From NCBI GenBank assembly GCA_031263035.1, contig JAISGP010000142.1:14224-78223 (forward strand): a DNA stretch of 64,000 nt, given 5' to 3'. This DNA is from Lachnospiraceae bacterium (GTDB lineage Bacteria > Bacillota > Clostridia > Lachnospirales > Lachnospiraceae). Both the position numbers and the translations under genes were made by a program. The notes beneath the pieces were generated by a model that made no database searches, was not told the origin of the DNA, and saw only the letters and a program-made list of their open reading frames with translations. Shown here piece by piece: positions 37,030 through 54,942 of the stretch (the first letter of the stretch is position 1; each line of letters starts with the position of its first letter).

Positions 37030-38490
37030 TTAATTTATAAATACGCCGTCTAACTGTTTACAAATAAAGGCTTCCAAAGTTGTGAAATTACTGATATTTG
37101 AAACTGATGATAAATTAAAGAATGGTGTGCTTTTACAAATATCAGGTGGTATCCAATCAGAAATTACTGCGTCAGGTAGTTCTCCCCCTAATTGGGATAT
37201 TGAGAGAACATCAATAGGAAATAATGAAACAGATTTAATAACCCATATCATTTGCTCTCTTTGTAGTGGGCTTGCCTTTGATTGTAGTAAAATTCGTAGT
37301 TTTGGCTTGTGTTCTTTAAATATAGTGGTTAATAATAAACCATAAATATTTCTTACAATTGGAAAACGCTCTATCATTTTAGCTGCTTCGGGAAACCTTG
37401 CTACAAAAATATTAAGAGTTTCATGTATTATTCGATAATCTTTTGGTAAAAGTAATTTTAATTTTTCGTCAAAATTTTGAACACCAAAAATAGGAGAGGG
37501 ACCTTTATATAAATTGGCAAGCTTATTAAAATAATATAGGTTTATTTTAATATAATTGATCTCATTTTTTTGTAGAGTAAAATCAAATTCTCTACCTAGT
37601 AATTCAACGAAACTATCTGCTATGTCATCAGTATGATAGACTATGTCCACATTGTTTTTTTCGTAGTCTAGTGGTATTGGAGAAATTGTGCAGAATAGTA
37701 GATATAGGTTTTCACATTCTACTTGTTCAGTGCCTGGTTCTGTACAATATTTTAATACCCCAGCTTCTTTTACTTCTCTATAAAAATCATCATATGAGAT
37801 TAAGGGATGGTTTTCTATAAAAAACTCTTCTCTTAACCGTATAAAATGTTTGTTTTGAGTACGCTTTAAAAGGATAAAAACTGATAAATTAAATCGTTGC
37901 ATACTGAAATAATCTATGTCAGGATTTATTCGTAAAAGCATTTTGGTAACATTTTGGATTACCGGTAAATTTAAATAAGAATCACATAAACTTAGTTCCC
38001 AAAAAAGTGCATTATAGAAATATCGAACTTGTAATTCTCGCCCTTTTATGGTTTCTTTTGAATGAAAACTAAGGTTTAATTCGTAATCCTTCATAAGTTT
38101 TCTAAGTCCGGCTACATGCTTTTGAAAAACACTTCTACTTACACATAAGTCATAAGATAAATCGGTTCCATTTGAATCTTCATTTAAAAAAAGACTTTTA
38201 ATTATTTTGTATTTTACAGAATCCTCAATCATTATATGAAGTAATTCAGATGGATGAGGAGGATTAGGATACCTTTCTTTTAATATATGCTTATTATAGG
38301 AAAAATGTGGCTTTTCCTGTTGTTTATCATAGTTAATCAATTCTGTGATTAATCTATTTACGGCTCGTCTATCAATATTTAATTTTTCGGAGAGTTTTAT
38401 ATATGAAATCTCTTTATTAGGAGTTTTATAAAGCTCTTCAACAATTCTTAACATATAGGATTGATTTTTTTCTAAAAAAACTTCTTTCAT
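37030..38490 (-). CDS. Mga/RofA-like stand-alone HTH virulence-type regulator (paralog 1)
   Basis: 486 aa with an N-terminal winged-HTH-like segment (ISYIKLSEKLNIDRRAVNRLITEL). Its size and its position divergent from a pilus operon are typical of RofA/Mga/EbpR-type regulators. It has the same length as ORF 48785..50245 and about half of positions are identical by eye. Confidence 0.6.
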   Translation of the reverse strand: MKEVFLEKNQSYMLRIVEELYKTPNKEISYIKLSEKLNIDRRAVNRLITELINYDKQQEKPHFSYNKHILKERYPNPPHPSELLHIMIEDSVKYKIIKSLFLNEDSNGTDLSYDLCVSRSVFQKHVAGLRKLMKDYELNLSFHSKETIKGRELQVRYFYNALFWELSLCDSYLNLPVIQNVTKMLLRINPDIDYFSMQRFNLSVFILLKRTQNKHFIRLREEFFIENHPLISYDDFYREVKEAGVLKYCTEPGTEQVECENLYLLFCTISPIPLDYEKNNVDIVYHTDDIADSFVELLGREFDFTLQKNEINYIKINLYYFNKLANLYKGPSPIFGVQNFDEKLKLLLPKDYRIIHETLNIFVARFPEAAKMIERFPIVRNIYGLLLTTIFKEHKPKLRILLQSKASPLQREQMIWVIKSVSLFPIDVLSISQLGGELPDAVISDWIPPDICKSTPFFNLSSVSNISNFTTLEAFICKQLDGVFIN

Positions 38491-38958: not shown

Positions 38959-38995
38959 GAATATAAATGGTTGTTGAGTAAGAAAGGTGGAAGTT

Positions 38996-41900
38996 ATGAA
39001 ATATTATGGGAAGATAAAAAGATGGCTATGTATATTGACGATTTTAGCTGTTTTTTTAGTACCGGTTTTTAATAGCTTAATACCAATGTCTAGAGCTGAA
39101 GAGAGTACTTCAGAAGAACAGATTAAGAGTAATACTGGTAAGAAAGAAAAGACTGAGGATGTAAGTGAAGAGAAAAATCAAACTAAGGTGGAACCTTCTG
39201 GGGATGCTACTAGTGATGTTATTGGTGAAGATAAAGAAGAAGCCGTCACTAAGGATGATACTTCAGATGAATCCACTGATGATAAGAATAATACAGAATA
39301 TACCGGTGGTGAGAAAAAATCTACTAATGCAGATGAAGAAGAGGCCTTTGATAAACATAGTTTAGGTAGAACACCATCTCTTCCTCGTCCAAGACGTTCT
39401 ATAACCGGAACATGGTCTGGAAATGGAAGTGAGACTACACCCTATGAAATCAGTACACCTGATGATTTAAAAGCTTTATCAGATGATGTTGCAAGTGGAG
39501 AAACATTTGCAGGTAAGTATTTTATCGTAACTGCTGATTTGGATTTAAGTGGGTATACTTCTTGGGTGCCTATAGGTTCAAGCAGAAGAGAACTTATTTT
39601 TGATCATTCTATTGATGATAATGATCCTTTGGTTGTAGATAATAATAATACTATGAGTGATCCTTTTGAAGGGAATTTTGATGGAAATAATAAAACAATT
39701 ACAGGATTAACTATTAATAAGCCAACAACGAATGGTGCAGCATCTGATTATAATGGATTATTTGGATTTCTCCATAATGGTTCAATATCTAATGTGATTA
39801 TAAGTGGTGCTAATATTCAAGGGCAGTCAGGAACTGGAGTTCTCTTAGGATATGGAAGGGATAATGTTACAGTAAGTAATTGCCATGTATTAAATTCAAC
39901 AGTGAATTCAACACAAGTTAATAGTAATTATGGAACAGCTGCTTTAATTGGAGAGCTAAAGTATTATGGAAACACTTCTGGTCCTGCAGTAGTTAGTGTT
40001 ACTAATAGTACGGTGGAAAACACTACAGTTAATAGTAAGAACGGTGCCGGAAGAAATGGAATTCTTATAGGTCAGATGTCAGCATACTTTTCAAACAGTA
40101 TGACAACACTACCTACAATTAATTCTAAAGTTACAATAAAAGATTGTGATGTTATTAATTCAAGTTTAGACAGTACTGTTTATTATATAGGCGGTATTGT
40201 AGGCTGCATGGATTATAGAGAAAGCAATAGTAATGAAGTAACTATAGATAACTGTGATGTATCTGGTGGAGGAACTAATCATATCAGATGTGGCTCATAT
40301 TATATGGGAGGAGCTATTGGATTTATTTGGTGTCAAGGGGTTGAAGGAATAGATCAATGTACTAATAATACTTTTTTAATTCAAGGATGTGATGTTAGTG
40401 GAATGGAAATATCCAATGATAACTATGAAGTTGGAGGACTTATAGGATTTTTGGATATACATCGAAACGCTGATGGTAATACCTATACCTTAAAGAATAA
40501 TACAGTAAATAATTGCAATATCTTTAGTACAGGAAGTTTTAATGTAGGAGGATTAATAGGATTATATTATACATATTTTGCAAATGATAATACTGTAAAT
40601 ATAGAGCAGTGTTTCGTAAATGATTGTACTATGTATAGTACGGCTAATTATAATGTAGGCGGATTTGTTGGACATTATCTTATAGATAGTTCTCAAAATA
40701 ATGTAGAGAATATTATTAATTCTGGAGTAAGAAGGTCTACTATTTCTCAAAATACAAATAATAGAGGTGGATTTATTGGGAGACTTGAATTAATAAATAA
40801 TGTAAATGGCACAGTGTGTACAATAAAGAACACTTATGCAGATGCTAAAGTTAATGGCACAGTTCGAGTAGGAGGGTTAATTGGATATTTATATAATCCA
40901 TCAACTTCCGGTGTAGTTCAAATAATAAATTGTTACACAATGGGCAGCGTAACTGCAACTGCAACTGCAGGCTACGCAGGTGGATTGATTGGATATTGTG
41001 GTGATAATGGTAAAAGTACAATAAAAAATTCCTATTCTATTTCTAGTACAAGTGCATCAACTAGTGGAGGATTGATTGGGTATAATGGAAATGCTTCAAC
41101 CCAAATATCTAATTGTTATGCAGCAGGTTTTATGAGTGGAACATCAACTACACGTGGAGGATTTGTTGGTGGTGGATTAAAAAATGCAACTACTTTTACT
41201 AATTGCTTTTATGATACTACAACTACAGGACGAACAGCGTCTCAAGCTTTTGGTAATGCTGCCCAAGCTGGTATTACAGGAGTGTCTACAGGATATGAAT
41301 TAAACAAAGCCCCTGGCATGACCAATATTGAAACCTTTAGTTCTTGGAATATAAAAAGCAATTTTGGTGGTGCTTCAAAAGGTCAAGGTACAGATGATAA
41401 TCCTTGGTATATAGATGATAAGATTACATACCCATATTTATATTATCAATATGATGGTTATTCTAAGGATGATGTTAATTACCAGTTAAGCAATGCTAAA
41501 TATAGCTTTGATGATGGTACCGTAACAGACAAGGCAATTACCCCAAGGCGAGCAGATTATTTTATAAGTAATGCAGATAATAATGAAAAGATAAGCTATA
41601 CAGTGAAGACTGCAGGTGCAGCAGCAGTTTTTTATCCATATACGTTAGAGAGTTACAACTTTGGTCAAAATGAAAGCCTTAGAGTTCCATCTGGTACCGG
41701 AAGTTTTACAGTAACGAGTAAAACCACACCATACTCTTTAGGTGGAATATCTAAAACAGATATAGTTGGATTTGATCCGCTACCTTATGCAGAGAAAACT
41801 TCTGACAGAGCCAAGTATGTGGCAGGCACTACATCTACTTACACGAAACGTGGAGATTTAATCACATATACAGTTTCCATTTATAACCCAAGCACTATTT

Positions 41901-43279
41901 ACAAATGGGTAGATGTAACCTTAAATGATCCATTTCCGGAAGGGGTTACATTGGTAGATTATTTATACAATGGAACTAAATACAATGTAAAAGTAGCGGT
42001 AGGAGATGGTACGCCGGTGATTGTGCCAAAGAATACGGCAGAAGGCAACGAACCATATTACTATACATATACTAAAGCAACGACATCAAGTGGAGTTGAT
42101 GGTCCATTAAATGTATATCTTGGTGATATGCCTATTGCTTCTGAAAATGCTAATGGGGAACTGGAACCTTATAAAGTAACAGTTACATTTACTGCAATTA
42201 TTGATAGAAGAGCAGTAAGTAAATTCCCGTTAGATAATGCTCAGAATAAGATAGATAATGGAGATAATATTAGAAATATTGGTACAGTATCCGGCACTAT
42301 TAAAGAAAATGCAAGTGGTGAAGGTGCTTTTGATTATAGTACTAAATATGATGACAATGATACAGATCCTGTTTATGACACATATAAGGTAAGTTACATT
42401 GGTAATGGTGGAAAAACAGCAGTAGGAGATACTAGATATAACTATTATTATCTCTATGACCAGAGTAGTACTGTTAAAGATAATGATGGTAACCCATTCT
42501 TATTTAAAAGACTTTACTATACATATCTTGACAAATGGGATAGCAGACCAGATTTTGTAGAAGGTAGCACCAAGGAGTATCAAATTGGAGATACATTAGC
42601 TCTTACTAATAATCTAAATCCAATTAATAGTGCAAATAGAACAGACACAGATAATGCAGATGATATAAATGATGATTATTATGCAGCTACAGATTTTAAG
42701 CTCTATGCACCTTGGAAGGAAGATAAAGGCTCAATAAAGATTATTAAAAAGAGTGAAGATGGTGATTTTCTAGATGGAGCTAAGTTCTTATTAGAGAAAA
42801 AAGATGGTGATAATTGGATACCTATAAAATGGGATAGTACATCTTCGAGTTGGATTAATCTTCCAAGTGGTGAAACTTATTCTGGAGAAACCGCCGGAAG
42901 TGGCGGAGAATTAACCTTCGGTAAAGAAGAAACAGATAACACTCTTAAATTTGGAGTTTATCGTATTACGGAAGTAGGAGCTAAAGAAGGTTATCAGTTA
43001 CTTAAAGATCCACTTATAGTCACACTACCTTATGAGAAGGCATCTAGCACGGATCCAAATGATAGCTGGAACACTACATATGTAAATGATAATGGAGAGA
43101 CTATGTACTCTTATTACAATCTTACATATACAGTTACCAATGTTGGAGCATTTGAATTACCTAAAGCAGGGAATAAAAACGTCTTTCCATTTTTGGAGGT
43201 AGGTTTATTTATTGCATTTCTTGGAATAGCCATTCAGGCAAGGCGATATAGAAGAGCTAAAAGAGGGAGGAAGCCTTAA
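38996..43279 (+). CDS. Large sortase-anchored adhesin (probable pilus tip subunit) with GLUG-type repeat beta-helix-like region and Cna-B/SpaA-type domains
   Basis: - N-terminus: signal peptide followed by an acidic low-complexity linker.
- Repeat region: about 20 repeats containing GG(L/F)(I/V)G(Y/F).
- DUF11-like segment: GDLITYTVSIYN...TLNDPFPEGVTLVD.
- One Listeria-Bacteroides type repeat: YKVSYIGNGG.
- C-terminal Cna-B-like domain: GSIKIIKKSEDG...YRITEVGAKEGY.
- Sorting signal: LPKAG, a TM helix, then RRYRRAKRGRK. Confidence 0.75.
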   Translation: MKYYGKIKRWLCILTILAVFLVPVFNSLIPMSRAEESTSEEQIKSNTGKKEKTEDVSEEKNQTKVEPSGDATSDVIGEDKEEAVTKDDTSDESTDDKNNTEYTGGEKKSTNADEEEAFDKHSLGRTPSLPRPRRSITGTWSGNGSETTPYEISTPDDLKALSDDVASGETFAGKYFIVTADLDLSGYTSWVPIGSSRRELIFDHSIDDNDPLVVDNNNTMSDPFEGNFDGNNKTITGLTINKPTTNGAASDYNGLFGFLHNGSISNVIISGANIQGQSGTGVLLGYGRDNVTVSNCHVLNSTVNSTQVNSNYGTAALIGELKYYGNTSGPAVVSVTNSTVENTTVNSKNGAGRNGILIGQMSAYFSNSMTTLPTINSKVTIKDCDVINSSLDSTVYYIGGIVGCMDYRESNSNEVTIDNCDVSGGGTNHIRCGSYYMGGAIGFIWCQGVEGIDQCTNNTFLIQGCDVSGMEISNDNYEVGGLIGFLDIHRNADGNTYTLKNNTVNNCNIFSTGSFNVGGLIGLYYTYFANDNTVNIEQCFVNDCTMYSTANYNVGGFVGHYLIDSSQNNVENIINSGVRRSTISQNTNNRGGFIGRLELINNVNGTVCTIKNTYADAKVNGTVRVGGLIGYLYNPSTSGVVQIINCYTMGSVTATATAGYAGGLIGYCGDNGKSTIKNSYSISSTSASTSGGLIGYNGNASTQISNCYAAGFMSGTSTTRGGFVGGGLKNATTFTNCFYDTTTTGRTASQAFGNAAQAGITGVSTGYELNKAPGMTNIETFSSWNIKSNFGGASKGQGTDDNPWYIDDKITYPYLYYQYDGYSKDDVNYQLSNAKYSFDDGTVTDKAITPRRADYFISNADNNEKISYTVKTAGAAAVFYPYTLESYNFGQNESLRVPSGTGSFTVTSKTTPYSLGGISKTDIVGFDPLPYAEKTSDRAKYVAGTTSTYTKRGDLITYTVSIYNPSTIYKWVDVTLNDPFPEGVTLVDYLYNGTKYNVKVAVGDGTPVIVPKNTAEGNEPYYYTYTKATTSSGVDGPLNVYLGDMPIASENANGELEPYKVTVTFTAIIDRRAVSKFPLDNAQNKIDNGDNIRNIGTVSGTIKENASGEGAFDYSTKYDDNDTDPVYDTYKVSYIGNGGKTAVGDTRYNYYYLYDQSSTVKDNDGNPFLFKRLYYTYLDKWDSRPDFVEGSTKEYQIGDTLALTNNLNPINSANRTDTDNADDINDDYYAATDFKLYAPWKEDKGSIKIIKKSEDGDFLDGAKFLLEKKDGDNWIPIKWDSTSSSWINLPSGETYSGETAGSGGELTFGKEETDNTLKFGVYRITEVGAKEGYQLLKDPLIVTLPYEKASSTDPNDSWNTTYVNDNGETMYSYYNLTYTVTNVGAFELPKAGNKNVFPFLEVGLFIAFLGIAIQARRYRRAKRGRKP

Positions 43280-43514
43280 TGTTAAGACTTTTATAGATTA
43301 AATTATTCGAAACTTAATTTTAATAATTTAGCGATGACTGAAAAGCTATAGATATTTATATTAAGTTATCTATAAAAAACGTATAAGCCTATTATATAAA
43401 AAATATAATATTTAATTACCAAATCGTTGTAGAGATATATAACATTTCGTGGAATATATTTTTACTTCAGATAAATTTAAAAAGAAAAAAATTCACTTTG
43501 AAAAGGAGAATAGT

Positions 43515-45044
43515 ATGAAACATTTAAAATTTAAAAGAATAATTAGTTTATTCTTTGCATTAGTCCTTATAGTAGGAATGATGCCTAAAGTTAGTAAAGC
43601 AGCTCCAACAATTGATACTACAAAAACGGGTAGCTTAACCATCAACAAAACAGATGAAGCACAGCAACCAGTAGCAGGGGCAGGTTTTACCATTTATAAG
43701 GTTGCAGATTTAAAGCAAGATGGTGGAACTATGAGTTATGATACTACAGGTTATACTCATGGAGTTATTGTAACAGGCGATACTACAGCGGCTGCCTTTG
43801 ATACTGCATTGTCACAAAATAAGCTTACAGCAGTTGGTAGTGAAGAAAAGACAGAGCTTCCTTCAGGACAAGTTAAATTTAGTAATTTAAGCCTTGGTAT
43901 TTATCTTGTAAAAGAAACTACCATACCAGCTCACACAATTGCAAGTAATAATTTCCTTGTAAGTATACCTATGACAGACCCAACTAATCATGATAGTTGG
44001 ACATATGATGTAGTTGCAGATCCTAAGAATGCGGTATTTACCGGTGGTATTACTAAGGAAATAACAAGTTCTACAACAGCAGAGACAGGGACAAATTCAT
44101 ATACTGCTAATGTAGGAGAACAGGTAACATATAAGATTACAGTTACCATGCCTAATGATTTCTATGGAACAAGCCAGTTTAAGAAAAACTATAATATGTT
44201 TAAAGTTATAGATATTCCATCTACAGGTTTGAAAATTGATATGACTTCTGTTACAGCAAAAGTCGGAACAACTAATGTAGGAACTATAACTACAGGTACA
44301 CCACAATTTGGAACTACTGCGGCAAGTACTACAGATGGTTTCACAGTTGATTTATTAAATTCCGAAGGAACTGCACCACAAAATGCTGCAATTGTAGCTG
44401 GTGCTACAGTAGAGATTACATATAATGCGACTATTACTAAGGATGCTGTTGGACAGGCTGGTGTAACCAATGCTGCTCATATCCTTTATGATACTCCAGG
44501 GTCAGATAAACCTGGTGATATAACACCAGATCCAAGTACACCAACACCAACTATTCATACATATAGTCACGCAGTTCTAAAAACAGACGATAAAAATAAT
44601 GCCCTTAATGGAGCAGAATTTGTTGTTAAATTAAATAATAATAAATATTTACAATTAAATACTGCAGGTGATGGATGGAATGAAGTAGATGCTGCTTCTG
44701 ATGCAACAACATTTACATCTGGTAGTTCTTATCCATTAGCTTCATATACTGCAGATGGTTATTTTGATATTATCGGTGTTAAGGGTGGAGACCATCAATT
44801 AATAGAGACTAAAGCACCAGCTGGTTATACATTGCTTACTGCACCAGTAAGTATAACTTTTGACGATACTTCTACTACAACTCAAGGAACTAATCATGGA
44901 CATACAACTACAGTTGTAAATGCTAAGAGCTTCTACTTCCCAACAACAGGTGGTAAGGGTATTATCATATTTATTGGTGGTGGAGCACTATTAATAGCTT
45001 TAGGAATATTTGTATATTCTAGAAAACGCAAAATACAAAAATAG
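43515..45044 (+). CDS. Major (backbone) pilin, SpaA/FctA-like
   Basis: It has a signal peptide from the ATG at 43515 (RBS AAAGGAGAA) and a Cna-B-type N-domain (GSLTINKTDE...GAGFTIYKV). The pilin-motif-like sequence is WTYDVVADPKN and the E-box is HQLIETKAPAGY. The sorting signal is FPTTGG followed by a TM helix and SRKRK. Confidence 0.8.
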   Translation: MKHLKFKRIISLFFALVLIVGMMPKVSKAAPTIDTTKTGSLTINKTDEAQQPVAGAGFTIYKVADLKQDGGTMSYDTTGYTHGVIVTGDTTAAAFDTALSQNKLTAVGSEEKTELPSGQVKFSNLSLGIYLVKETTIPAHTIASNNFLVSIPMTDPTNHDSWTYDVVADPKNAVFTGGITKEITSSTTAETGTNSYTANVGEQVTYKITVTMPNDFYGTSQFKKNYNMFKVIDIPSTGLKIDMTSVTAKVGTTNVGTITTGTPQFGTTAASTTDGFTVDLLNSEGTAPQNAAIVAGATVEITYNATITKDAVGQAGVTNAAHILYDTPGSDKPGDITPDPSTPTPTIHTYSHAVLKTDDKNNALNGAEFVVKLNNNKYLQLNTAGDGWNEVDAASDATTFTSGSSYPLASYTADGYFDIIGVKGGDHQLIETKAPAGYTLLTAPVSITFDDTSTTTQGTNHGHTTTVVNAKSFYFPTTGGKGIIIFIGGGALLIALGIFVYSRKRKIQK

Positions 45045-45120
45045 TATTTGCAATTAAATTAGAGGAAAATAGTTTATTTTGATAGTAATTTTTCATATAA
45101 AGTAGTACCTCAAAAAATCG

Positions 45121-45148
45121 GATATAGGAGGGTAAAAACTCCTATATC
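45121..45148 (+). terminator. Hairpin after the major pilin gene (possible partial terminator setting subunit stoichiometry)
   Basis: GATATAGGAG / CTCCTATATC (10 bp perfect) with no strong U-tract. Confidence 0.35.
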
Positions 45149-45173
45149 TATTAAAAAGGGGATAGAAAAATAG

Positions 45174-46028
45174 ATGAGAAAACACTTCTTAAATATTTTG
45201 ACTGTTTTGATTATTTTAGCAGGAATAGCCTTAATGTTTTATCCCTTTTTTTCAGAATGGTATAGTAATGTACACCATGCAAAAGTTATAAAAACATATA
45301 ATCAAAAAGTTGAAAGTAAAACAGAGAAAGAGTTAGATGCTGAAAGAAAAAAAGCTGAGGAGTACAATAGAAATCTTCTGGGAAAAGTAATCCTTACAGA
45401 CCCTTTTGATCCAAAGAATAAAATAGAAGATACAGGTGATTATAGTTCTATTTTAAATGTAGATGGAAATGGGATGATGGGAGATATACGTATTCCAAGT
45501 ATTGATGTAAATCTTCCAATATATCATGGCACTACAAGTGATATATTGGCAAAGGGAGTGGGACATCTTGAGTATACTTCTTTTCCGGTAGGTGGTAAGT
45601 CCACCCATACAGTTTTATCTGCGCATACTGGAATACCTTCAGCAGAATTATTTACTAACCTTGATAAAGTTAAGATTGGGGATATATTTTATCTAGATGT
45701 TTTGGACAAAACATTGGCTTATAAGGTTGACCAGATAAAGGTGGTTTTGCCAACTGACACCTCTGATTTAAGGATAGTTCGCAATAAGGATTATGCAACA
45801 CTAGTTACATGTACACCCTATGGTATTAATTCTCATAGACTTTTGGTTAGAGGAATTAGAACTAAGTATGTAAAAGCAAAGGATAAGGATACAAGTTACA
45901 ATCTTGTGAATAGTCTACGACTTAGACTTTTGATTATCTGTATAGTGTCTCTATTTCTTGTGATTTTAATTCTTTATCTATTATATAGACGAAGAAAAAA
46001 GAAGGAAGATAATCAAAACCATAATTGA
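45174..46028 (+). CDS. srtC: Class C (pilin-polymerising) sortase 1
   Basis: N-terminal and C-terminal TM anchors, lid motif DPF, catalytic HTG...TLVTCTPYGINSHRLLVRG. Confidence 0.9.
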   Translation: MRKHFLNILTVLIILAGIALMFYPFFSEWYSNVHHAKVIKTYNQKVESKTEKELDAERKKAEEYNRNLLGKVILTDPFDPKNKIEDTGDYSSILNVDGNGMMGDIRIPSIDVNLPIYHGTTSDILAKGVGHLEYTSFPVGGKSTHTVLSAHTGIPSAELFTNLDKVKIGDIFYLDVLDKTLAYKVDQIKVVLPTDTSDLRIVRNKDYATLVTCTPYGINSHRLLVRGIRTKYVKAKDKDTSYNLVNSLRLRLLIICIVSLFLVILILYLLYRRRKKKEDNQNHN

Positions 46029-46173
46029 TGGAAAACATACAGATGATAATTAAAGAAAAGAATATTTTATGTATTTAATACCTAATTCTGAAAAAGAATA
46101 AGAAAGAAATTTATCTAATAGAATAAAACAATAAGGTAAAAAAGTTTTTTAAAAGTAAGAAGAGGAATGTATT

Positions 46174-47496
46174 ATGAAGAAAGTAATAACAACGTTAATT
46201 GGAATATTTTGTATATTGAGTTTTTCATTTTCGGCTAGTGCAGCTAAAGCGGGGGTAAATTTAGAATATAAAAATTCATTTCAAAATGAAAAAAATAGCG
46301 TTGTTAAAACAGCAAATGGTGATAATGAAAAGCCAGAGGCATTAGGTATAGACCAGTTTATAAGACCATCTTCTCATGAAGATTATAATTTTACAAATGG
46401 TTTAAAAGCTAAGCATATGTCCGTTTCACCGGAAGAAAAATTTGGCTATACAATTACATCTTATTATCCTATGGAAATTGGTGCCACCACAGATGAAACT
46501 TATGTTATTACAGATAAGATAAATCCATTTGTAAAGTGTTATGAAGATACTATAAATGTATATTCGGCTGTAGAAAAAACATCGCCGGTTTTAGAAAGCT
46601 ATTTGCTAAGTTCTGGGAAAGATTATCAAGTAGCATTTAATAGTGAAGATAACAGTCTTTCTGTTAGTTTAACACATGAAGGTATGGTATTACTTGGTAA
46701 TAGATATATAAATAATGGGGAAAGCTTTGTAATAGTTAAATTTGATTGTAGTTTAAGAGAGAATGCAACTCAAGGTATTGGTTTATATAGTCATGCAAGC
46801 GTTGTATATCAAGGACATGATATGACTTCTCATGCAGAAACAGATCCGGCAATACTAAGCAGTAGAAATTCGAAAATGAACAACAACATTTCACAATTGG
46901 AATTTTCGAGTTTATCAAATAATAATCAAATTTTAAGAAATAATAAAGAAAATCAGATTGAATTAGTTGATGATGAAACTAGTACACCTATAAGAAAATA
47001 TGAGGCAAGTGTTCCTGATGAACCTGAAATTCATACAGGTCAGATTGTTGTTTTTAAATATGATGCAAATAATAAAACTAAAGCTTTAAGTGGAGCAAGT
47101 TTTGGACTTGCAACAAGTAAAGAAAATGCTAATGCAGGGAAATTTATTAAAACCGGACAAACTGATGGAAATGGTAAAATAGTCTTTAAAAATTTGCACT
47201 ATGGTAATGTAGGGGATGCTTTTAATGAAGATACTGCAGGTTCCTTTTGGTTAGTGGAAACTAAAGCTCCGTCAGGATATGTTGTATTAGATAAGCCTGT
47301 TGAGGTTAAATTTAAATATCAAAGAGCAAATGATGGAGAATATTTTATAGGTAAAATTAACGTTTATAATCAGCATAAATCAAGTTCTCCTTTTGTAAAA
47401 ACAGGGGATAGAGTTAGATTAATATTTGCCATAGTTCTTTTAGTAGCTTCTCTTACCTTAATTTTTGGAGCATTAAAAAGAAGGAAAAGTAAATAA
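46174..47496 (+). CDS. Minor/basal pilin with non-canonical sorting signal
   Basis: Signal peptide, a C-terminal Cna-B-like domain (GQIVVFKYDANN...GASFGL), the E-box FWLVETKAPSGY, and the sorting signal PFVKTGD followed by a TM helix and KRRKSK. Confidence 0.7.
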   Translation: MKKVITTLIGIFCILSFSFSASAAKAGVNLEYKNSFQNEKNSVVKTANGDNEKPEALGIDQFIRPSSHEDYNFTNGLKAKHMSVSPEEKFGYTITSYYPMEIGATTDETYVITDKINPFVKCYEDTINVYSAVEKTSPVLESYLLSSGKDYQVAFNSEDNSLSVSLTHEGMVLLGNRYINNGESFVIVKFDCSLRENATQGIGLYSHASVVYQGHDMTSHAETDPAILSSRNSKMNNNISQLEFSSLSNNNQILRNNKENQIELVDDETSTPIRKYEASVPDEPEIHTGQIVVFKYDANNKTKALSGASFGLATSKENANAGKFIKTGQTDGNGKIVFKNLHYGNVGDAFNEDTAGSFWLVETKAPSGYVVLDKPVEVKFKYQRANDGEYFIGKINVYNQHKSSSPFVKTGDRVRLIFAIVLLVASLTLIFGALKRRKSK

Positions 47497-47596
47497 TTTA
47501 ACTTTATTTAGATATTGCTATAGAGCTATTAATATGTTTTGCAAATAGTTGTATTTCCATATGAAAATAAAACAAAGGGTAGTTGGAATAGTATAG

Positions 47597-48475
47597 ATGA
47601 AAGATAAAAACAAGAAAGGCTTGATGTTAAACGTAATAGTGATATTACTTGTTTTGGCTGGATTTTCTCTTTTGCTTTATCCATTTGTAAAGTTTTGGAC
47701 AGCTAATCGTAAGACTACTTATGCAATTGAAGAGTATGATAAAACTTACGAGAAAATGAATAAAGAAAAGATAGAAAAAGAGTGGGAAAAGGCTAAGATT
47801 TATAATAAAAATCTTAAGACTGGCACTATTGCGGATCCATTTACAGTTAATCCTACAACAGTTCTTGATGATTATTATAAGGTGCTGGATATTGGAGAAA
47901 ATGGTATGATGGGATATATAAGAATACCTAAAATCAATTTGCGATTGCCTATATACCATGGTACTAGCGAAAGTGTGTTGGATAAAGGAATTGGGCATTT
48001 AAAAGGTACTCATTTGCCGGTAGGAGGGGCATCTACCCATTCAGTTTTAAGCGGACATGCTGGGCTTCGCTCAGCGGTTCTTTTTACTAATTTAACAGAG
48101 TTAAAAGAAGGCGACGAGTTTTATATTAATATTTTGGATAAAACTCTAGCTTATCGAATAGATAAGATTTCTGTAGTATTGCCTGATGATATGAGTGGGA
48201 TTAAACCTATTCCTGGGCGAGATTTGGTGACTCTTGTAACATGTACACCCTATGGAATTAATAGTCACAGGCTGTTAGTTAGGGGAACAAGAGTTAAATA
48301 TACTCCAGAGGGATTAAAGAAAAAAATAGCAGATACTAAGGTAGAAATTAATTGGATGACCAAGGTTTTAATTGGAGCAGCAATATGCTTTGCTTTGATT
48401 ATATTATATTTATTATATCGATTTATCAAGAAAATAAAGAAGAAGAGAGTAAAAGATAATTCTGAAAAAAACTAA
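47597..48475 (+). CDS. srtC: Class C (pilin-polymerising) sortase 2
   Basis: Same architecture as 45174..46028: DPF lid, TLVTCTPYGINSHRLLVRG and a C-terminal TM anchor. Confidence 0.9.
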   Translation: MKDKNKKGLMLNVIVILLVLAGFSLLLYPFVKFWTANRKTTYAIEEYDKTYEKMNKEKIEKEWEKAKIYNKNLKTGTIADPFTVNPTTVLDDYYKVLDIGENGMMGYIRIPKINLRLPIYHGTSESVLDKGIGHLKGTHLPVGGASTHSVLSGHAGLRSAVLFTNLTELKEGDEFYINILDKTLAYRIDKISVVLPDDMSGIKPIPGRDLVTLVTCTPYGINSHRLLVRGTRVKYTPEGLKKKIADTKVEINWMTKVLIGAAICFALIILYLLYRFIKKIKKKRVKDNSEKN

Positions 48476-48784: not shown

Positions 48785-50245
48785 TTAGTTTGTGAATTTT
48801 TCATCTACTAAGCTACAAAGGAAGAATTCTAGCTTAGTAAAGTTACTGTTATTAGTTACAGTAGAAAGATTGAAAAATGGAATATTATGGTATTGCTCAG
48901 GTGGAATCCAATCTGACATTATGGCATCTGGCATAGCTTTATCAGATTCTGCCATTGAGATTATTTCAACTGGAAACATAGATGTAGAAGTGATTATCCA
49001 TTCTAGTTGTTCAAGTTGAAGAGGACTAACCTTAGTTTGTAAAAGTAATTTTATTACTGGTTTATGCTGTTTGAAAATTGCTGCAAGTAGAAGAACATAA
49101 ATATAATAAAGTGGTGGAAATCTATCAACTAGTTCCTTTACCTTATGATTTTTTGCAAGGTGTACATTAATTAACTCAAGTATTCTATTAAAGTCTTTTG
49201 GCATTATAGTCTTAATTTTACTTGCTAGATTTTGAGCACCAAAGATTTGAGCATTACCTTTTATTGTATTTGCCATATTGTGCAAATAATATAAATTATA
49301 TTTTAGGTAATTAATTTCACTTGTAGTAAATCTAAAAGGTAGTTCTTTTCTTGCTAATTCAATAAAGTTTTCTATGATTTGATCAGAGTGTGTAGTTATT
49401 TCTTCTTGTGAATCATCATTTACAAGAGGTATTGCAACTATACTGCAGTATACAAAATATAAATGTCTGGCTTCCGATTTTTCTATATTTTCATTTGTAC
49501 AATATTTGTAAATTCCTGTTTCTTTTGTAAGCATGTAGAACTCTCTAAAAGAAATAGTAGGGTGATCTTCAATATCATACTTTGGCGAATTCTTTACAAA
49601 ATGTTTTTTCTCAGTTCGTTTTTCTGTAATATATGCAGAAAGAAGAAATCTCTGTAACGTAAAGAAATCAATATTTGGATTAGTTTGTACCATAAAAGCT
49701 GAAATGTCTTTTATTATGGTTGACTCATTGTAAATAGAGTTTATATCTAATTCCCATAATAATGAGTGGAAGAAGAAACGAATTAAAACTTCATCTCCTT
49801 TCATTATTTCTTTTGAATAAAAACTAAAGTCAATATTGAATGAACGCATAAGTTTACGAAGGGCAGCAACATGCTTTTGGAAAATACTTCTACTTACGCC
49901 TAGATCATATGACATATCTGTTCCATTGCAAGTCTCATTCCAAAAAATATTTTTAATGATTTTGTACTTAATAGTATCTTTTATCATTACGTGCAATAAC
50001 TCAGATGGATGAGGTGGAAAATCATATAATTCCGATAAAATATGATTTTCATACTTAAAATGTGGTTTTTCTTGTTTGCTATCATAGTCTACAAGTTCTT
50101 CTATTAGTCTATTTGCAACACGCTTATCAATATCTAAAATTTCTGACAGTTCTTTGTAAGAAATTTCATTGTTTTGGCTTTTATATAATTCTTCTACGAT
50201 TCTAATTATATAAAGCTGGTTTTTTTCTAAAAATACTTCTTTCAT
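48785..50245 (-). CDS. Mga/RofA-like stand-alone HTH regulator (paralog 2)
   Basis: 486 aa and collinear with ORF 37030..38490 (MKEVFLEKNQ.Y..RIVEELYK..., PPHPSELLH, NGTD.SYDL.VSRS.FQKHVA.LRKLM, PDA..SDWIPP). It is divergent from the operon starting at 50769. Confidence 0.6.
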   Translation of the reverse strand: MKEVFLEKNQLYIIRIVEELYKSQNNEISYKELSEILDIDKRVANRLIEELVDYDSKQEKPHFKYENHILSELYDFPPHPSELLHVMIKDTIKYKIIKNIFWNETCNGTDMSYDLGVSRSIFQKHVAALRKLMRSFNIDFSFYSKEIMKGDEVLIRFFFHSLLWELDINSIYNESTIIKDISAFMVQTNPNIDFFTLQRFLLSAYITEKRTEKKHFVKNSPKYDIEDHPTISFREFYMLTKETGIYKYCTNENIEKSEARHLYFVYCSIVAIPLVNDDSQEEITTHSDQIIENFIELARKELPFRFTTSEINYLKYNLYYLHNMANTIKGNAQIFGAQNLASKIKTIMPKDFNRILELINVHLAKNHKVKELVDRFPPLYYIYVLLLAAIFKQHKPVIKLLLQTKVSPLQLEQLEWIITSTSMFPVEIISMAESDKAMPDAIMSDWIPPEQYHNIPFFNLSTVTNNSNFTKLEFFLCSLVDEKFTN

Positions 50246-50570
50246 GAATGCTTCTCCTTAATTGTTGATTTAAAATCTGTATGATTATATTTTAATTTTT
50301 TAGTTTTTCCAAAGATGAAACAGATTTACTGAATTAATTAGATAAAAATACAATATATGTGTGTTCGTTAAACATTTTGGCTTCATACACACTGAGGAAA
50401 GTATATTATAGAAAATTCAAAAATGTGTGTCCTCCTTATAATATAAAATTAATATTTTGAAAATAAAAACTATTATAGCACCTTAATTTTTTTTATTTAT
50501 CTTAAATCTGCACGAATAATAATAAATGCACACAAACCTCATGAAAAAAAGAGGATTTGTACAAAATAAT

Positions 50571-50720
50571 TAAATGTGAATAAAATACCATAAAACTATA
50601 TGAAAATCATTCATATTTAAATAAACGCAATCTAGTTCATTGTGAGATAATACTAAAAACATCAAATGTTTATATTTTTTAAATGTGAATAAAATCCATA
50701 AATAAAGTGTGAAAGAAAAT
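50571..50720 (+). repeat. Direct repeats TAAATGTGAATAAAAT(A)CCATAAA (x2, starts 109 bp apart) plus a degenerate third copy
   Basis: The copies are at 50571-50594 and 50680-50702, with the degenerate AAAGTGTGAAAGAAAAT at 50704-50720. All lie in the regulator/operon divergent intergenic region, 50-200 nt upstream of the ATG at 50769. Confidence 0.75.
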
Positions 50721-50768
50721 TATCACACAGATATTGTAATTATACACTGATGAAAGGAGTCTTATAAT

Positions 50769-52181
50769 ATGAAAAGAAATGGCAGGATGTTTATATACAT
50801 TGTACTATGTTTTATTTTGGCAATAGGTAGTTTTTTGGGAGCTAATTCATTTAGAAAGAAAATTCAGTATAGAGAAAACGGAGTTGCAGAATATAAAGTT
50901 AAGTTAAAAGAAAATCCATATTATGATACAGATATTTTAAGCAAGAATATGTATTATATTGCGGGTCTTGTAGATTATATAGATTTAAATTTTCTATATG
51001 GACTACGTTCAGATAGTGAAATCGATTATAAAAGTAATTATTCTCTTGAAACCAATTTGATTATCGCTGAAGAAGGAAAGCCAGATAATGTTATTTATAC
51101 TAAAAAAGAAGATTTAGCTAAAAATAAAACTCAAGATGAAAATGGCGTGGAAAGTTTCGCTATAGAACAACAGGCTAAAATTAAATTTAACGATTATAGT
51201 AAAAAGGCAAAAGAATTTATTTCCAAATACGGCATTACTGCAAAGGGATTTTTAAGAGTATCTCTTCAAGTTGATACAGATGGTAATTATTCTAATACAA
51301 GTAGAAAGATTAATGCATCTGGAGTGATTACAGCAGAGATACCATTAACAGAACCATTGTTTAATATAACAACTAAGTCAGGAATAGATATTCCGGGAAC
51401 TAAATCTCATCAAGTTATGGAAACACCATTAAGTGAAGGAATTAGAATTGCTAGCTATGTTTTCTTAGGTGTTGGAGTTTTATTAGGAATTATATGGTTA
51501 GTATCTTTATCTAAAAAACGTCAAGATATGACTGACTATGAGAGAGAAAAAGATCAAATCTTCCATAATTATGACAAGATGATTGTAAGAGCTAAAAGTG
51601 ATTTGGATCTATCTTTAGAAAAAGAATTAATTGAAGTGGAAACTTTTGAGGAGTTGTTAGGAATAAGTGATAGAAGTGGTAATCCAGTTTTGTTTTTAGA
51701 AAAACAAAATGATGAAATGGAAAGAACTGGTAAATTCATTGTAAGAATAGATGATGAATGTTATGAATATGAAATAATTGGTTCAGATAAAAGGGAAATA
51801 CCATTTAATTATGTAGATAAGGGAAGAAAAGATAAAGAGTATATAGAAGATAATTTCCAAAAAGAAATTTCTAATACAGTTAAATATGAAGAAGAACCTT
51901 ATAAAGTTGTTTCTAATAAAGAAGAACCTGTAAAAACAGAGATACTTAAAGAAGAGAGTTCAACTGGAGAAGCGACAATCTACGGTATTTCTCCAAAAGA
52001 ACTTCCGGAAGAACTACAAAAGCAGTTAAACGCTATTCTTCCATCAGTGAAAGAATATAGTAGAAAGAAGAAAGAGCAGAGAAATATATCTTCTGAAAAG
52101 AAGAGGATGCTAATGGAGGAATTATCTAAGCTTAATAATATGTATTCAAAAATTCTAGAGAGTGTGGATCAAAATGAGTAG
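50769..52181 (+). CDS. Bitopic membrane protein, DUF5305-like (accessory protein of SipW/TasA-type clusters)
   Basis: 470 aa. The order is an N-terminal TM helix, a ~200-aa extracytoplasmic domain, a second TM helix (ASYVFLGVGVLLGIIWLVSL), then a ~220-aa charged cytoplasmic domain. The DUF5305 assignment is from recollection of architecture and context only. Confidence 0.4.
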   Translation: MKRNGRMFIYIVLCFILAIGSFLGANSFRKKIQYRENGVAEYKVKLKENPYYDTDILSKNMYYIAGLVDYIDLNFLYGLRSDSEIDYKSNYSLETNLIIAEEGKPDNVIYTKKEDLAKNKTQDENGVESFAIEQQAKIKFNDYSKKAKEFISKYGITAKGFLRVSLQVDTDGNYSNTSRKINASGVITAEIPLTEPLFNITTKSGIDIPGTKSHQVMETPLSEGIRIASYVFLGVGVLLGIIWLVSLSKKRQDMTDYEREKDQIFHNYDKMIVRAKSDLDLSLEKELIEVETFEELLGISDRSGNPVLFLEKQNDEMERTGKFIVRIDDECYEYEIIGSDKREIPFNYVDKGRKDKEYIEDNFQKEISNTVKYEEEPYKVVSNKEEPVKTEILKEESSTGEATIYGISPKELPEELQKQLNAILPSVKEYSRKKKEQRNISSEKKRMLMEELSKLNNMYSKILESVDQNE

Positions 52182-52800
52182 GTATAGATATGCTGCTGGA
52201 CATTCGATGAGAATAAGAAAAGATAAAAAAACAATTGTGATAATAATTGTTGCATGTATATTATTTCTTTTATCTTTATCAACCATATTAGGTAGTTTAG
52301 GATATTCCGCTTCTGGAGGAGATTTAAAGATACTAAGTTCAGGAACAATACGTCCAGTACCAGAGCTTACTGTATTTGTAGGTTCAGGCCGTGAAGGATG
52401 GCCTTTTGGTGGATGTACAATGGCACCTAGTAGTGGTATTAAAATTACTTCAATGAGTGCAGATATGAATTATGTATATATCGGTGGAAGTAGATTTAAT
52501 AATACACCAAGTAGATTATATACCGGTTGTTATTTAAGAATTAAAAATGTTGGAAATATTAATTATAAATTTACTGGGGTAACTCTTTTAAATGCAGGAA
52601 CATTAGATGTGAATAAATGTAGTATTAAGTTACTAACTGGTAGTTTTCCTTCACCAGGTGTTGGAACCTTCGTTACGGAAAATGTAGTTTTAAAACCAAA
52701 TGAGTATCAGGTTATATATATTAATATAGATATTAATGATGTGTCACCACCTAATAGTGATGTAAAATTTTTAGTTCGAATAGATGGTTACAGGGCATAG
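52174..52800 (+). CDS. Secreted/signal-anchored protein, possible TasA-superfamily minor subunit
   Basis: The ATG at 52174 overlaps the upstream stop (ATGAGTAG). It has a basic N-terminus plus hydrophobic helix (KKTIVIIIVACILFLLSLSTILGSLGYSASGG). The beta-rich body contains YLRIKNVGNINYKF, which resembles the F.V.N.G. strand pattern of TasA/camelysin-like proteins. Confidence 0.4.
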   Translation: MSRYRYAAGHSMRIRKDKKTIVIIIVACILFLLSLSTILGSLGYSASGGDLKILSSGTIRPVPELTVFVGSGREGWPFGGCTMAPSSGIKITSMSADMNYVYIGGSRFNNTPSRLYTGCYLRIKNVGNINYKFTGVTLLNAGTLDVNKCSIKLLTGSFPSPGVGTFVTENVVLKPNEYQVIYINIDINDVSPPNSDVKFLVRIDGYRA

Positions 52801-53003
52801 TTTTATAATTGTGACAAGAAGAAAATTACTCTTCTGTTAAGAAGTATTGATTTAGTAAGTAAGTGATTGCTAAACCCATTTTGAAATGGGATGGTAGGTT
52901 AGACGATATAAAAGTTTTAATTTTATACCAGAGGTTTAGAGGTGTGGACTTCTACTGAAGAAGTTTTCATAAATTTAAAAATAGTTTTAAGGAGAAAAAA
53001 GAG

Positions 53004-53687
53004 ATGACAAAAGAAAGAAGAAACAAAAGGGTAGCAATTGTAGTTTTGTTAGTATTGGTTATGGGGCTTACAGTAGCATTTTCACTATATGAAACAGCTC
53101 TTAAAATTAATGCAACAGGTACAGTTAATGGTTCAGCTGATTGGGATTTAGAAATGACTAAAGGTGCATTTTATGATTATGATTTCCAAGCAGGTTCTAC
53201 TACAGTATATAACACTGGTGCAGATAATTCATCAGCTGTTAGTATAGCTGGAGATGGAATTCATAGTCATGCAAATGAAGGTATTACTATGAGTGGACTT
53301 TCATTTACACTTTCAAAACCGGGAGATAGTGTAAGTTATCGTTTTACTGTAAAAAATTATTCTCTTAATTATGCTGCAAAGTTATCAAAGGATCCAATAT
53401 TTGACATGGGTTCAGATAATAAAGGCAAAGATAATAAAACAGCTCTTATTATACCAACACTTAAAGTCGTAAGTGGAGGCGGTACAGATTATCGTAGCGG
53501 TACAGATGTAGCAGCTGCTGATACTATAGGTAAGGCAACAGGAAATACTGGTTCAGTAACTCCAAGTACTGTAGACATGGAACTTACATTTACATACAAT
53601 CCAGCTATTACATCATCAAATGCTTTAGACGATGAAATTACATTAACTAATCTTGGCGTTACATTAAAATATGAGCAAGTTGTATAA
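53004..53687 (+). CDS. Secreted protein, TasA/camelysin-superfamily-like (candidate major fibre subunit)
   Basis: It has a strong RBS (AAGGAGAAAAAAGAG-ATG) and sits after its own 200-bp upstream spacer. The N-terminal signal is KRVAIVVLLVLVMGLTVAFSLYE, comparable to the SipW-type G-T-x-A-x-F-x-D region. It also contains LSKPGDSVSYRFTVKNYS, which resembles the TasA LKPGD......F.F.N.GS pattern. Confidence 0.45.
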   Translation: MTKERRNKRVAIVVLLVLVMGLTVAFSLYETALKINATGTVNGSADWDLEMTKGAFYDYDFQAGSTTVYNTGADNSSAVSIAGDGIHSHANEGITMSGLSFTLSKPGDSVSYRFTVKNYSLNYAAKLSKDPIFDMGSDNKGKDNKTALIIPTLKVVSGGGTDYRSGTDVAAADTIGKATGNTGSVTPSTVDMELTFTYNPAITSSNALDDEITLTNLGVTLKYEQVV

Positions 53688-53790
53688 TTTAATTTGGCTT
53701 TAGTAAGATAGAAAGTATGTGCTTTTAGAGCTAGGGTGTATGCCTTAGCTCTTTAGTGTATATATTGTTTTTTGAAAGGAAGTATTTGAA

Positions 53791-54942
53791 GTGAAAAAAG
53801 CTGAATATGGAAAAGTTACATTAGGATGTATTGCTCTTATGGGAACATTTTTCATATCTTATTTAGAATTATATCCTTTAGGTGATTATATTCATCCTAT
53901 AGTTATGGCTGTTTTAGCCATAATATATATGTTGTTTTTTCAATACAAAAAAGCAAATAGCAGGTATTTTATGTCTATGATACAGGACATAATTATCTTT
54001 ATTTGTATTTATGAATTAATTACTTATATTGCAGGAATATTTACTAGCTTTTATGCTAATCCATTAAATGGTGATTATCAAGGGATTGTCATAAAGTTAA
54101 TTATAGAAAGCATATATATAGTAGCCTATGAATTCATTCGATATGTTCTTATAAAAAAGTCAGGAAATTCTTTTTGGCTATATTTATTAATTATCTTTAC
54201 ATTTATTACTGCAGATATTTGGGCTATTCTTCCAGAATATAATCCTAATCGTTTATCAAATTGGATTTATATTGCTTTGTTTGCTATAATTCCCGGATTT
54301 GCAAATAATTCACTACTTACATATATATCCCTGAAGACTGGTCCATTGCCTTGTATCTTGTATTCTGGTATACTTCTTTTTGTGAAGATAATAATTCCTT
54401 ATCATCCGGATTTTGGAATGTATATTGGTGGTATAATATCCATAGTTGCACCTTTATTGTTTTTGCTCGCATTGTATGAGATAGATAAAAAGAAAGATAG
54501 AAGCTCTTTATACTATACATCCCCAACTGTAAAGATAGTTGAAAGAACTACATTAGGGGTTTTAGTAGCGGTTATTGTAGTTATAGTTAGTTTAACCTCT
54601 AATGCTTTTAGATATGGAACTTTAACTATAGGGTCTGGAAGCATGACAGGAACTATCAATAAAGGTGATGTTGTTCTTGTAAAACACCTTAAGGAAAAAG
54701 AAAAATTAAATCTTCAAGAAGGGGAGATAATTGCTTTTCATGAAGATGGGGTTATTATTGTACATAGAATAATTAGAATTACTGATATGCAGGATGGAAC
54801 CCATTATTTCTTTACTAAAGGAGATTTTAATAATGCTGAAGATGGAAGACCTATTGTAGAGAAAGATATAATTGGTACAGTTAGTCAAAGAATTCCTTAT
54901 CTTGGTTGGCCTACAGTGCTAGTAAATGAATTGTTGCATTAA
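53791..54942 (+). CDS. Fusion protein: N-terminal polytopic membrane domain (~260 aa, about 7-8 TM) + C-terminal SipW/ER-type signal peptidase I (S26B)
   Basis: The C-terminal 120 aa carries SGSMTGTI (Ser nucleophile box), GDVVLVK, VHRII (His box) and TKGDFNNAEDG. The N-terminal part is hydrophobic with no motif I can assign. The start is GTG with AAAGGAAG upstream. Confidence 0.65.
   Translation: MKKAEYGKVTLGCIALMGTFFISYLELYPLGDYIHPIVMAVLAIIYMLFFQYKKANSRYFMSMIQDIIIFICIYELITYIAGIFTSFYANPLNGDYQGIVIKLIIESIYIVAYEFIRYVLIKKSGNSFWLYLLIIFTFITADIWAILPEYNPNRLSNWIYIALFAIIPGFANNSLLTYISLKTGPLPCILYSGILLFVKIIIPYHPDFGMYIGGIISIVAPLLFLLALYEIDKKKDRSSLYYTSPTVKIVERTTLGVLVAVIVVIVSLTSNAFRYGTLTIGSGSMTGTINKGDVVLVKHLKEKEKLNLQEGEIIAFHEDGVIIVHRIIRITDMQDGTHYFFTKGDFNNAEDGRPIVEKDIIGTVSQRIPYLGWPTVLVNELLH

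Follow-up and report, generated by a model that had tools for sequence, protein, structure and literature searches.

Surface fibres of the TasA superfamily serve as scaffolds for biofilms and for attachment in Bacillus as well as several archaea, and the TasA fibre itself forms by donor-strand exchange. In the tapA-sipW-tasA operon of Bacillus subtilis, the gene of an endoplasmic reticulum (ER)-type signal peptidase, SipW, lies beside that of the TasA-superfamily subunit, and the accessory protein TapA has an N terminus that resembles a donor strand. More elaborate loci have been described in other prokaryotes. For example, bacterial and archaeal AbpX loci comprise major and minor subunits, tip proteins, a ten-helix signal peptidase I and a DUF5305 accessory protein, the polytopic peptidase together with DUF5305 being a published hallmark of the type, and the bacterial AbpX-like loci are often found near LPXTG or S-layer homology (SLH) anchors and sortases (bioRxiv 10.64898/2026.01.04.697558). 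Another example is the haloarchaeal Tafi system, in which the peptidase TafD and the DUF5305 protein TafG accompany subunits of 150-200 residues and for which a strand-donation filament has been solved (PMC12337348; PMC11821415). DUF5305 has been read in these systems as a signal-peptidase accessory and not as a TapA-like assembly factor (bioRxiv 10.64898/2026.01.04.697558; PMC12337348; PMC11821415). Here we analyse an operon of four co-directional genes, delimited by open reading frame (ORF) calling at positions 50769-54942 (+ strand) of a 64,000-nucleotide stretch of a Lachnospiraceae bacterium (GenBank assembly GCA_031263035.1, contig JAISGP010000142.1, positions 14,224 to 78,223; the whole stretch is called the window below). 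The genes encode a membrane protein with DUF5305, two small proteins rich in beta structure (A and B) and a polytopic signal peptidase, and we propose, with a probability of roughly 0.7, that the operon builds a fibre on the cell surface that is Sec-dependent, non-covalent and of TasA-superfamily type, closest to the AbpX-like branch, and that it also supplies the machinery for processing the subunits. That a fibre forms, that the signals are cleaved and that there is cross-talk with a neighbouring pilus are all read here from sequence and from analogy with the systems above.

The closest likeness is to the AbpX-like loci (AbpX of Pyrodictium abyssi and its homologues in Bacillota and Chloroflexota). 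These share with the operon a small acidic subunit in which a Sec signal precedes an N-terminal strand of donor type, a further gene for a minor subunit, a signal peptidase I of about ten helices (nine plus a short C-terminal segment here), a DUF5305 protein of two helices with one domain outside and one in the cytoplasm, and, in bacteria, LPXTG proteins and sortases nearby. On the other hand, protein B has no direct match and its link by sequence is weak (E=0.0025); the second subunit is here the orphan protein A, of basic isoelectric point (pI); no B-like module was found in an LPXTG protein of the window; and the regulators of the AbpX-like loci are of histidine kinase, c-di-GMP or Spo0A type, whereas an Mga/EbpR-type regulator is present here. 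In the Tafi loci, too, the genes for a signal peptidase, a DUF5305 protein and two or three small subunits form a conserved cluster, although these subunits are mostly exported by the twin-arginine (Tat) pathway and are of DUF1102/TafE type, not of the B family, and TafD has four helices and another domain order. With tapA-sipW-tasA the operon shares the ER-type peptidase gene beside a TasA-superfamily subunit, and the TasA fibre is the best structural match of a model of B. However, SipW lacks the nine-helix domain, the Bacillus operon has no DUF5305 gene, protein A is unrelated to TapA and B scores below the Peptidase_M73 and TasA models, and the operon is not an orthologue of tapA-sipW-tasA. 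The window operon fits the AbpX/Tafi template feature by feature. Since this locus architecture has already been published (2025-2026), it represents a very divergent new example and not a new system or category. What sets it apart is a very divergent subunit family that Pfam does not model, the orphan protein A, a regulator of Mga/EbpR type and the duplicated-regulator arrangement with a sortase pilus. A second, non-covalent fibre made by a SipW-type peptidase and TasA-like proteins had already been proposed from the letters of the DNA without database searches (the sequence-only reading). This proposal is now supported as probable by the profile and structure links of the B family and by the conserved trio of B-like, peptidase and DUF5305 genes, and the four-gene operon that it delimited is confirmed by the ORF positions.

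Protein B and its relatives

In protein B, residues 1-28 form the signal, with cleavage predicted between AFS and LY (after Ala-Phe-Ser28). The signal is followed by a putative donor strand, LYETALKINATGTV, and then by a beta-sandwich that carries the PGD motif KPGDSVSYRFTVKNYS. The mature protein has a pI of 4.5 and an Asp plus Glu content of 11.6%. A word-index search with this protein returned only the entry of the source metagenome-assembled genome (MAG), whereas an exhaustive HMMER search recovered 124 distant relatives of about 25-35% identity, most of them of about 200 residues. The members of this family, for which Pfam has no model of its own, share the N terminus MEKERKIKxLSLVALIVAVLGLTVAFAALSQTLTINGTATV and a block of the form KPGDxVxYTFxVxNxGxIxAxL.

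The link to known fibre proteins comes from several sides. When a profile of 103 relatives was compared with 177,635 PDB sequences, AbpX (9sj2_C) came first (E=0.0025, with almost the entire chain aligned), another AbpX entry (9rhp_A) gave 0.042, and the TasA entries 5of1 (0.5) and 8aur (0.94) were both among the top 8; a smaller profile of 40 members also placed AbpX first. Peptidase_M73 (PF12389) is matched by 10 of the 103 relatives (best E=1.4e-6) and the NCBIfam TasA model by two of 40. Peptidase_M73 was originally annotated as 'Camelysin metallo-endopeptidase', and these weak matches would also accord with B being a camelysin-like secreted metalloprotease instead of a structural protein. 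Such a role is barely credible, as the sequence of B contains neither HExxH nor another metal-site motif and the solved members of the superfamily, TasA (8aur) and AbpX, are fibre subunits.

At the structural level, an AlphaFold2 (AF2) model of mature B is an all-beta sandwich (predicted local distance difference test score, pLDDT, 77.5; predicted template modelling score, pTM, 0.75) in which the first ~20 residues, comprising the N-terminal strand, remain unplaced (pLDDT 52-64), as expected of a donor strand in a monomer. Among PDB structures, Foldseek matches this model best to the TasA fibre (8aur_A; probability 0.90, E=0.01, template modelling (TM) score 0.29-0.32); weak matches to chaperone-usher pilins, which are also users of donor strands, come next. 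In an earlier model that included the signal helix TasA had ranked third (E=0.066, a weak match), and it moved to the first rank, still above 1e-3, once the mature part and a deeper alignment were used. Conservation points in the same direction. Across 52 members of the family, mean column identity is 0.74-0.79 in the signal and 0.68 in the strand after the predicted Ala-x-Ala site, against 0.28-0.34 in the body, and because signal and strand are conserved above the body, a dedicated recognition signal and a strand that fits a conserved groove are suggested. No single one of the lines leading to TasA and AbpX is strong by itself, and the sequence link is statistically modest. All lines together, and the gene context with them, make it highly probable that B belongs to the TasA superfamily, where it would be the probable major fibre subunit and closest to the AbpX-like branch.

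The signal peptidase and its presumed DUF5305 partner

The C-terminal domain of the peptidase matches TIGR02228 (sigpep_I_arch) with E=3.2e-23 and 82.4 bits, against a cutoff of 51.85, and also exceeds the Pfam S26/S24 cutoffs. On the equivalog model of Bacillus SipW (NF046067) the protein reaches 67 bits, below the cutoff of 190. By these scores it is the same type of enzyme as SipW but not its orthologue, and it has an extra nine-helix domain. Family-averaged hydropathy and the positive-inside rule give about nine transmembrane helices (residues 1-275) ahead of the S26 domain (276-383), which is placed outside the cell because of the nine helices that precede it; a short hydrophobic segment follows at the C terminus. 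In an alignment of the window protein with 12 homologues from other genomes (n=13), Ser284 (in GSGSM, as Ser284-Met285), His325-Arg326 (VHR) and Asp345/Asn347/Asp351 (GD.N...D) are invariant, a set that corresponds to the Ser-His-Asp of ER and archaeal enzymes, with His and not Lys. The membrane domain also contains invariant residues across these 13 proteins from distant taxa (Y33, Y74, E114, R117, D142, and N173), although residues 1-250 (53791-54540) fall in no Pfam family, and the invariant polar residues suggest that this domain does more than anchor the enzyme. An ER/archaeal-type Ser-His peptidase fused to a polytopic domain is what the sequence-only reading had described, and both halves of that description hold.

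The product of the first gene matches DUF5305 (PF17231) with E=2.1e-18 and 67 bits, against a cutoff of 29, in line with the earlier guess at this family and with the claim that the accessory protein is unrelated to TapA. It had been taken for a bitopic protein with large domains on both sides of the membrane. The two domains stand, whereas hydropathy gives two hydrophobic helices (7-29 and 224-250) in place of a single one, so that the predicted topology has the N terminus inside, residues ~30-223 outside (~195 residues) and residues 251-470 in the cytoplasm (~220 residues). By analogy with the published systems, the protein is presumed to be an accessory subunit of the signal peptidase.

Related loci in other genomes

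Related loci were sought by a scan of one genome per species with a tighter subset of the B relatives as query, the broader alignment being too diverse; the same scan with the single DUF5305 protein as query found nothing. In the word-index search the DUF5305 protein retrieved, besides the entry of the source MAG, one DUF5305 protein of 25% identity and, as judged from such searches with A, B and the DUF5305 protein, this lineage is barely sampled in protein databases. For two B relatives, the contigs proved too short to reveal neighbouring genes. The scan yielded 57 loci with B-like genes, nearly all in MAGs of uncultured gut 'Bacilli' or 'Tenericutes', in Clostridium sp. CAG:594 and in Candidatus Aphodocola. 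The order B-like gene, polytopic peptidase of 380 residues and DUF5305 gene recurs in 11 of them, and in a twelfth (L032) the contig ends ~500 nt past the peptidase gene, with an ORF fragment there that does not match DUF5305. In the related loci, conservation extends over the two halves of the peptidase (E down to 5e-49). Neither a sortase nor a pilin was found within ~7 kb in the 12 core loci.

In six core loci, the DUF5305 gene is followed on its 3' side by a further signal-bearing gene (LSVGYSALNEELKISGEA, a related signal). Five of these genes encode proteins of 541-736 residues, and the three that were scanned (L025:13048-14672, L011:15374-17584, and L026:13362-15362) contain leucine-rich repeat (LRR) domains of DUF285/BspA type. 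The same fusion of signal and N-terminal module to LRRs occurs in larger B relatives from the database (P0004, P0088, P0100, and P0105), and these fusions of ~520-740 residues resemble tip adhesins belonging to this fibre system. B-like copies are scattered, and their signal peptide is nearly invariant. The loci retrieved from a single assembly contain as many as 10-11 such ORFs but only one or two pairs of peptidase and DUF5305 genes. Examples of multicopy arrangements are L011:9986-17584 and L049:3349-8715, the latter with five short paralogues around the peptidase gene.

As a separate observation, six loci (L039, L045, L008, L017, L035, and L050) encode a sortase of ~205 residues at a distance of 1.5-2.5 kb from one of the B-like paralogues, within a conserved housekeeping region. 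This sortase adjoins an acidic protein of ~625 residues, and obg-like GTPase and guanylate-kinase-like genes were recognised nearby by eye. A simple pattern search found no LPXTG protein beside these sortases of gut Bacilli. They lie near some B paralogues and outside the core loci, and a linkage between sortases and the fibre genes of the related genomes was considered and judged probably coincidental.

Protein A

Protein A also begins with a signal of the cognate type and an N-terminal strand (GYSASGGDLKILSSGTI) and is rich in beta structure. Its start is ambiguous among three positions (52162, 52174, and 52207); the public annotation uses 52174, and the protein would have 197 residues from the ATG at 52207. 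The mature protein is basic (pI ~9.0, versus the acidic mature B). In an index of 5.8 billion proteins it retrieved only itself. The signal and first strand of A, GYSASGGDLKILSSGTIRPV, can be aligned with those of B, and slightly better with those of the class-2 LRR adhesins from the related loci. The comparison of A with the B family by hhalign gives a probability of 82% at full length and of 10-17% without the signal, and since the probability collapses once the signal is removed, A was not accepted as a member of the B family. The sequence-only reading had assigned both small proteins to the TasA superfamily and had seen a strand motif of the form PGD......F.V.N.(G/Y)S in each of them. For B both points are borne out, by KPGDSVSYRFTVKNYS, by the family profile, by the Pfam matches of its relatives and by the best structural match. 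For the body of A a TasA link is not demonstrated, and in place of the motif A has a looser stretch, Y.R.KNVGN. Nevertheless, the peptidase probably has A, too, among its substrates, and A is a candidate for a minor, tip, end or nucleator subunit, for which the donor-like N terminus of TapA offers a possible analogy.

Evidence for and against a fibre

Several results weigh against the fibre proposed above. Neither A nor B matches any model of Pfam or NCBIfam at E<=0.1, Peptidase_M73, TIGR04088 and TasA included, and the direct match to Peptidase_M73 or to TIGR04088 that the sequence-only reading had named as a check is absent. Searches of the PDB by phmmer with the two proteins gave nothing relevant. 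Generic beta-sandwich repeats that share the PGD motif, DUF7507 and DUF11, are matched by 15 and 7 of the 103 B relatives, respectively. When the B family was aligned by hhalign to a single TasA sequence (residues 28-261, 100% identical to 8aur_A), the PGD motif alone was aligned, with a probability of 27%. Foldseek gave nothing below E 1e-3 for the B model, its TM score to TasA is only ~0.3, and the AbpX structures are not among its top 50 matches. The hallmarks of AbpX are also matched only in part, the Asp plus Glu content of B being lower than the ~15% of AbpX, and the predicted cleavage between AFS and LYET leaving an aromatic residue at the second position (Tyr2), as it should, with the acid at the third (Glu3) and not at the fourth. 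Finally, sequence comparison does not demonstrate homology to B for the body of A.

These results bring up another explanation, according to which A and B would be surface or secreted beta-sandwich proteins that do not polymerise and use the peptidase and DUF5305 as a dedicated sorting system. They might act as monomeric adhesins or as variable surface antigens, or be anchored by an N-terminal helix that stays uncleaved. The many scattered copies per genome in gut Bacilli are typical of variable surface-protein families, and both the matches of B relatives to generic immunoglobulin-like repeats and a similarity to TasA structures below significance would accord with it. However, the top PDB matches of the profile are precisely the fibre proteins AbpX and TasA, the alternating hydrophobic strand behind the cleavage site is conserved far above the body, the monomer model leaves this strand unplaced, the LRR adhesins built on the same N-terminal module resemble tip subunits, and the architecture of the locus equals that of the experimentally solved AbpX and Tafi fibre systems. 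A sorting system that makes no fibre is for these reasons considered unlikely.

Regulation and the neighbouring sortase pilus

The operon is preceded by a divergent regulator gene, and a paralogous regulator heads a sortase pilus island on the other side of it. The operon regulator matches the Mga helix-turn-helix (HTH) domain (PF05043) with E=1.1e-12, above cutoff, the two regulators scoring 48.8 and 60.2 bits against a cutoff of 21.1. On the AcpB/EbpR/MafR model NF053736, the operon regulator reaches 76.5 bits (E=2.6e-21, residues 6-421) and the pilus-island regulator 103.4 bits (residues 6-419), both below the cutoff of 130; from these scores both proteins belong to the Mga domain family, whereas for the AcpB/EbpR/MafR subfamily they remain below threshold. 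They are 51% identical over all 486 residues, without gaps, in agreement with the earlier claim that the operon has its own Mga/RofA-like regulator, paralogous to that of the pilus locus. From its position, the divergent regulator is presumed to activate the operon.

In the control region, TAAATGTGAATAAAAT occurs in two exact copies (50571-50586 and 50680-50695) at a distance of 109 bp, and a -35/-10 pair close to consensus is present at 50741-50768. This 16-mer has no other copy in the window at <=2 mismatches, but at least two matches were found in 16 of 100 shuffles; the two copies may represent binding sites for the Mga/EbpR-like regulator, with weak statistics. No repeats common to the two regulator-controlled promoter regions were found. 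Gene B is preceded by a 203-nt spacer with a strong ribosome-binding site and followed, at 53714-53773, by a long hairpin and a run of six U. The fold of 53685-53795 has a free energy of -30.4 kcal/mol (z=-4.15), equalled by none of 200 shuffles, although a scan for consensus terminators missed the hairpin. This structure is probably a partial terminator or a 3' structure that stabilises the mRNA, keeping expression of B above that of the peptidase. No Rfam family or riboswitch was found across the operon, even at E<=1.

The neighbouring island encodes an LPXTG adhesin of 1430 residues, a backbone pilin of 531 residues, a sortase C, a pilin of 440 residues and a second sortase C. Both sortases match PF04203 and are class-C-like; the backbone pilin combines GramPos_pilinD1/BB and SpaA domains with LPXTG, and two further proteins of the island have SpaA domains. 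In its layout, the island (37030-48475, with its regulator) equals the ebpR-ebpABC-srtC locus of Enterococcus. In the 1430-residue protein (38987-43279), Pfam recognises the C-terminal SpaA domain only; its first ~1200 residues have no Pfam match at E<=0.01 and contain repeated motifs of the type GG(L/F)(I/V)G.

SipA/LepA is a catalytically inactive P-type chaperone of the streptococcal FCT region, and the sequence-only reading had offered, as an alternative, that the peptidase-like protein of the operon serves the adjacent pilus in a similar manner, A and B then being accessory pilus proteins. The operon does lie directly beside the island and shares with it a pair of paralogous regulators. 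Nevertheless, the protein is of ER/archaeal and not of bacterial P type, and because the catalytic residues are kept, being invariant in all 13 homologues, its sequence indicates a real peptidase and not an inactive chaperone. The pilins of the island have ordinary signal peptides and no protein of the island matches the B-family profile, while the operon has a regulator and a promoter region of its own. What removes the alternative is the set of 11 loci in which a B-like gene and DUF5305 accompany the peptidase with no sortase or pilin gene within ~7 kb, and a SipA/LepA-like role was rejected as very improbable. The Enterococcus-type pilus is covalent, made by sortases, and its tie to the fibre operon consists of adjacency and regulator paralogy, the two features from which a co-ordination of both structures may be supposed.

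A proposed model of fibre assembly

For the proposed fibre, the following sequence of events can be envisaged. The divergent EbpR/Mga-like regulator would activate the promoter in the 523-bp control region, and A and B would be made with the family-specific signal peptide that their sequences contain. The nine-helix peptidase, together with the DUF5305 protein, would then cleave both proteins, B after Ala-Phe-Ser28; this step is attributed to the pair because of the catalytic residues, the Ala-x-Ser site and the conserved synteny. Cleavage would release the amphipathic N-terminal beta-strand LYETALKINATGTV which, as homology to TasA and AbpX suggests, would enter the open sandwich groove of the next subunit, and repetition of this exchange would lead to a fibre. 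Acidic B would be the major subunit, with the hairpin and U-tract limiting read-through into the peptidase gene. More speculatively, basic A could act as a cap, tip or nucleator at one end of the fibre, in the way in which TapA serves TasA and the LRR tip proteins would serve the fibres of related loci.

A broader and rather doubtful extension of this model, put forward tentatively, is that the B family, the nine-helix peptidase and DUF5305 constitute a sorting and assembly system of the kind 'signal peptide plus cognate peptidase', in which the conserved membrane domain (E114, R117, D142, and N173) couples cleavage to strand exchange. One enzyme pair might then serve many scattered paralogues as well as the LRR tip adhesins, so that the fibres of uncultured gut Bacilli would be heteropolymers of variable composition, and such a system would here have been captured beside a sortase pilus, with duplicated EbpR-like sister regulators switching both fibres.

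Genomic setting

The coordinates of the features are collected in Table 1. The contig has a low GC content of ~30%. The start of the gene for protein A overlaps the end of the DUF5305 gene, and the 3' neighbourhood of the operon is the rpmG-secE-nusG-rplKAJL-rpoB cluster. Upstream of rplJ, as expected, a ribosomal protein L10 leader (RF00557) was recognised at 57587-57723 (+ strand, 66.9 bits). Elsewhere in the window, the Rfam small RNA (sRNA) 'drum' is matched at 14948-15044 on the - strand (62 bits, E=3.3e-9), exceeding the gathering score.

Table 1. Features of the fibre operon and of its surroundings, in window positions.
Feature	Position	Strand	Remarks
Paralogous regulator	37030..38490	-	heads the sortase pilus island
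Sortase pilus island	38987..48475	+	adjacent to the fibre operon
Mga/AcpB-EbpR-like regulator	48785..50245	-	486 aa; divergent from the operon
Control region	50246..50768	+	523 bp, AT-rich; between regulator and operon
DUF5305 membrane protein	50769..52181	+	470 aa; Pfam PF17231
Protein A	52174..52800 (alternative starts 52162, 52207)	+	208 aa; orphan, beta-rich, basic
Protein B	53004..53687	+	227 aa; probable major fibre subunit
Hairpin and U6	53714..53773	+	between gene B and the peptidase gene; RNA folding
Polytopic signal peptidase I	53791..54942	+	383 aa; TIGR02228

Significance

The operon extends the AbpX-type version of these fibres, with polytopic peptidase and DUF5305, to a gut Lachnospiraceae bacterium, and also to a large, multiplied subunit family of uncultured gut Bacilli whose members are sometimes fused to LRR domains of BspA type. 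What remains of particular interest is this unannotated subunit family and the conserved nine-helix domain of the peptidase. In addition, a fibre operon and a sortase pilus under sister regulators offer a tractable case of the choice between two kinds of fibre. The finding points to a widespread and so far unexamined surface fibre of gut commensals, which could matter for colonisation.

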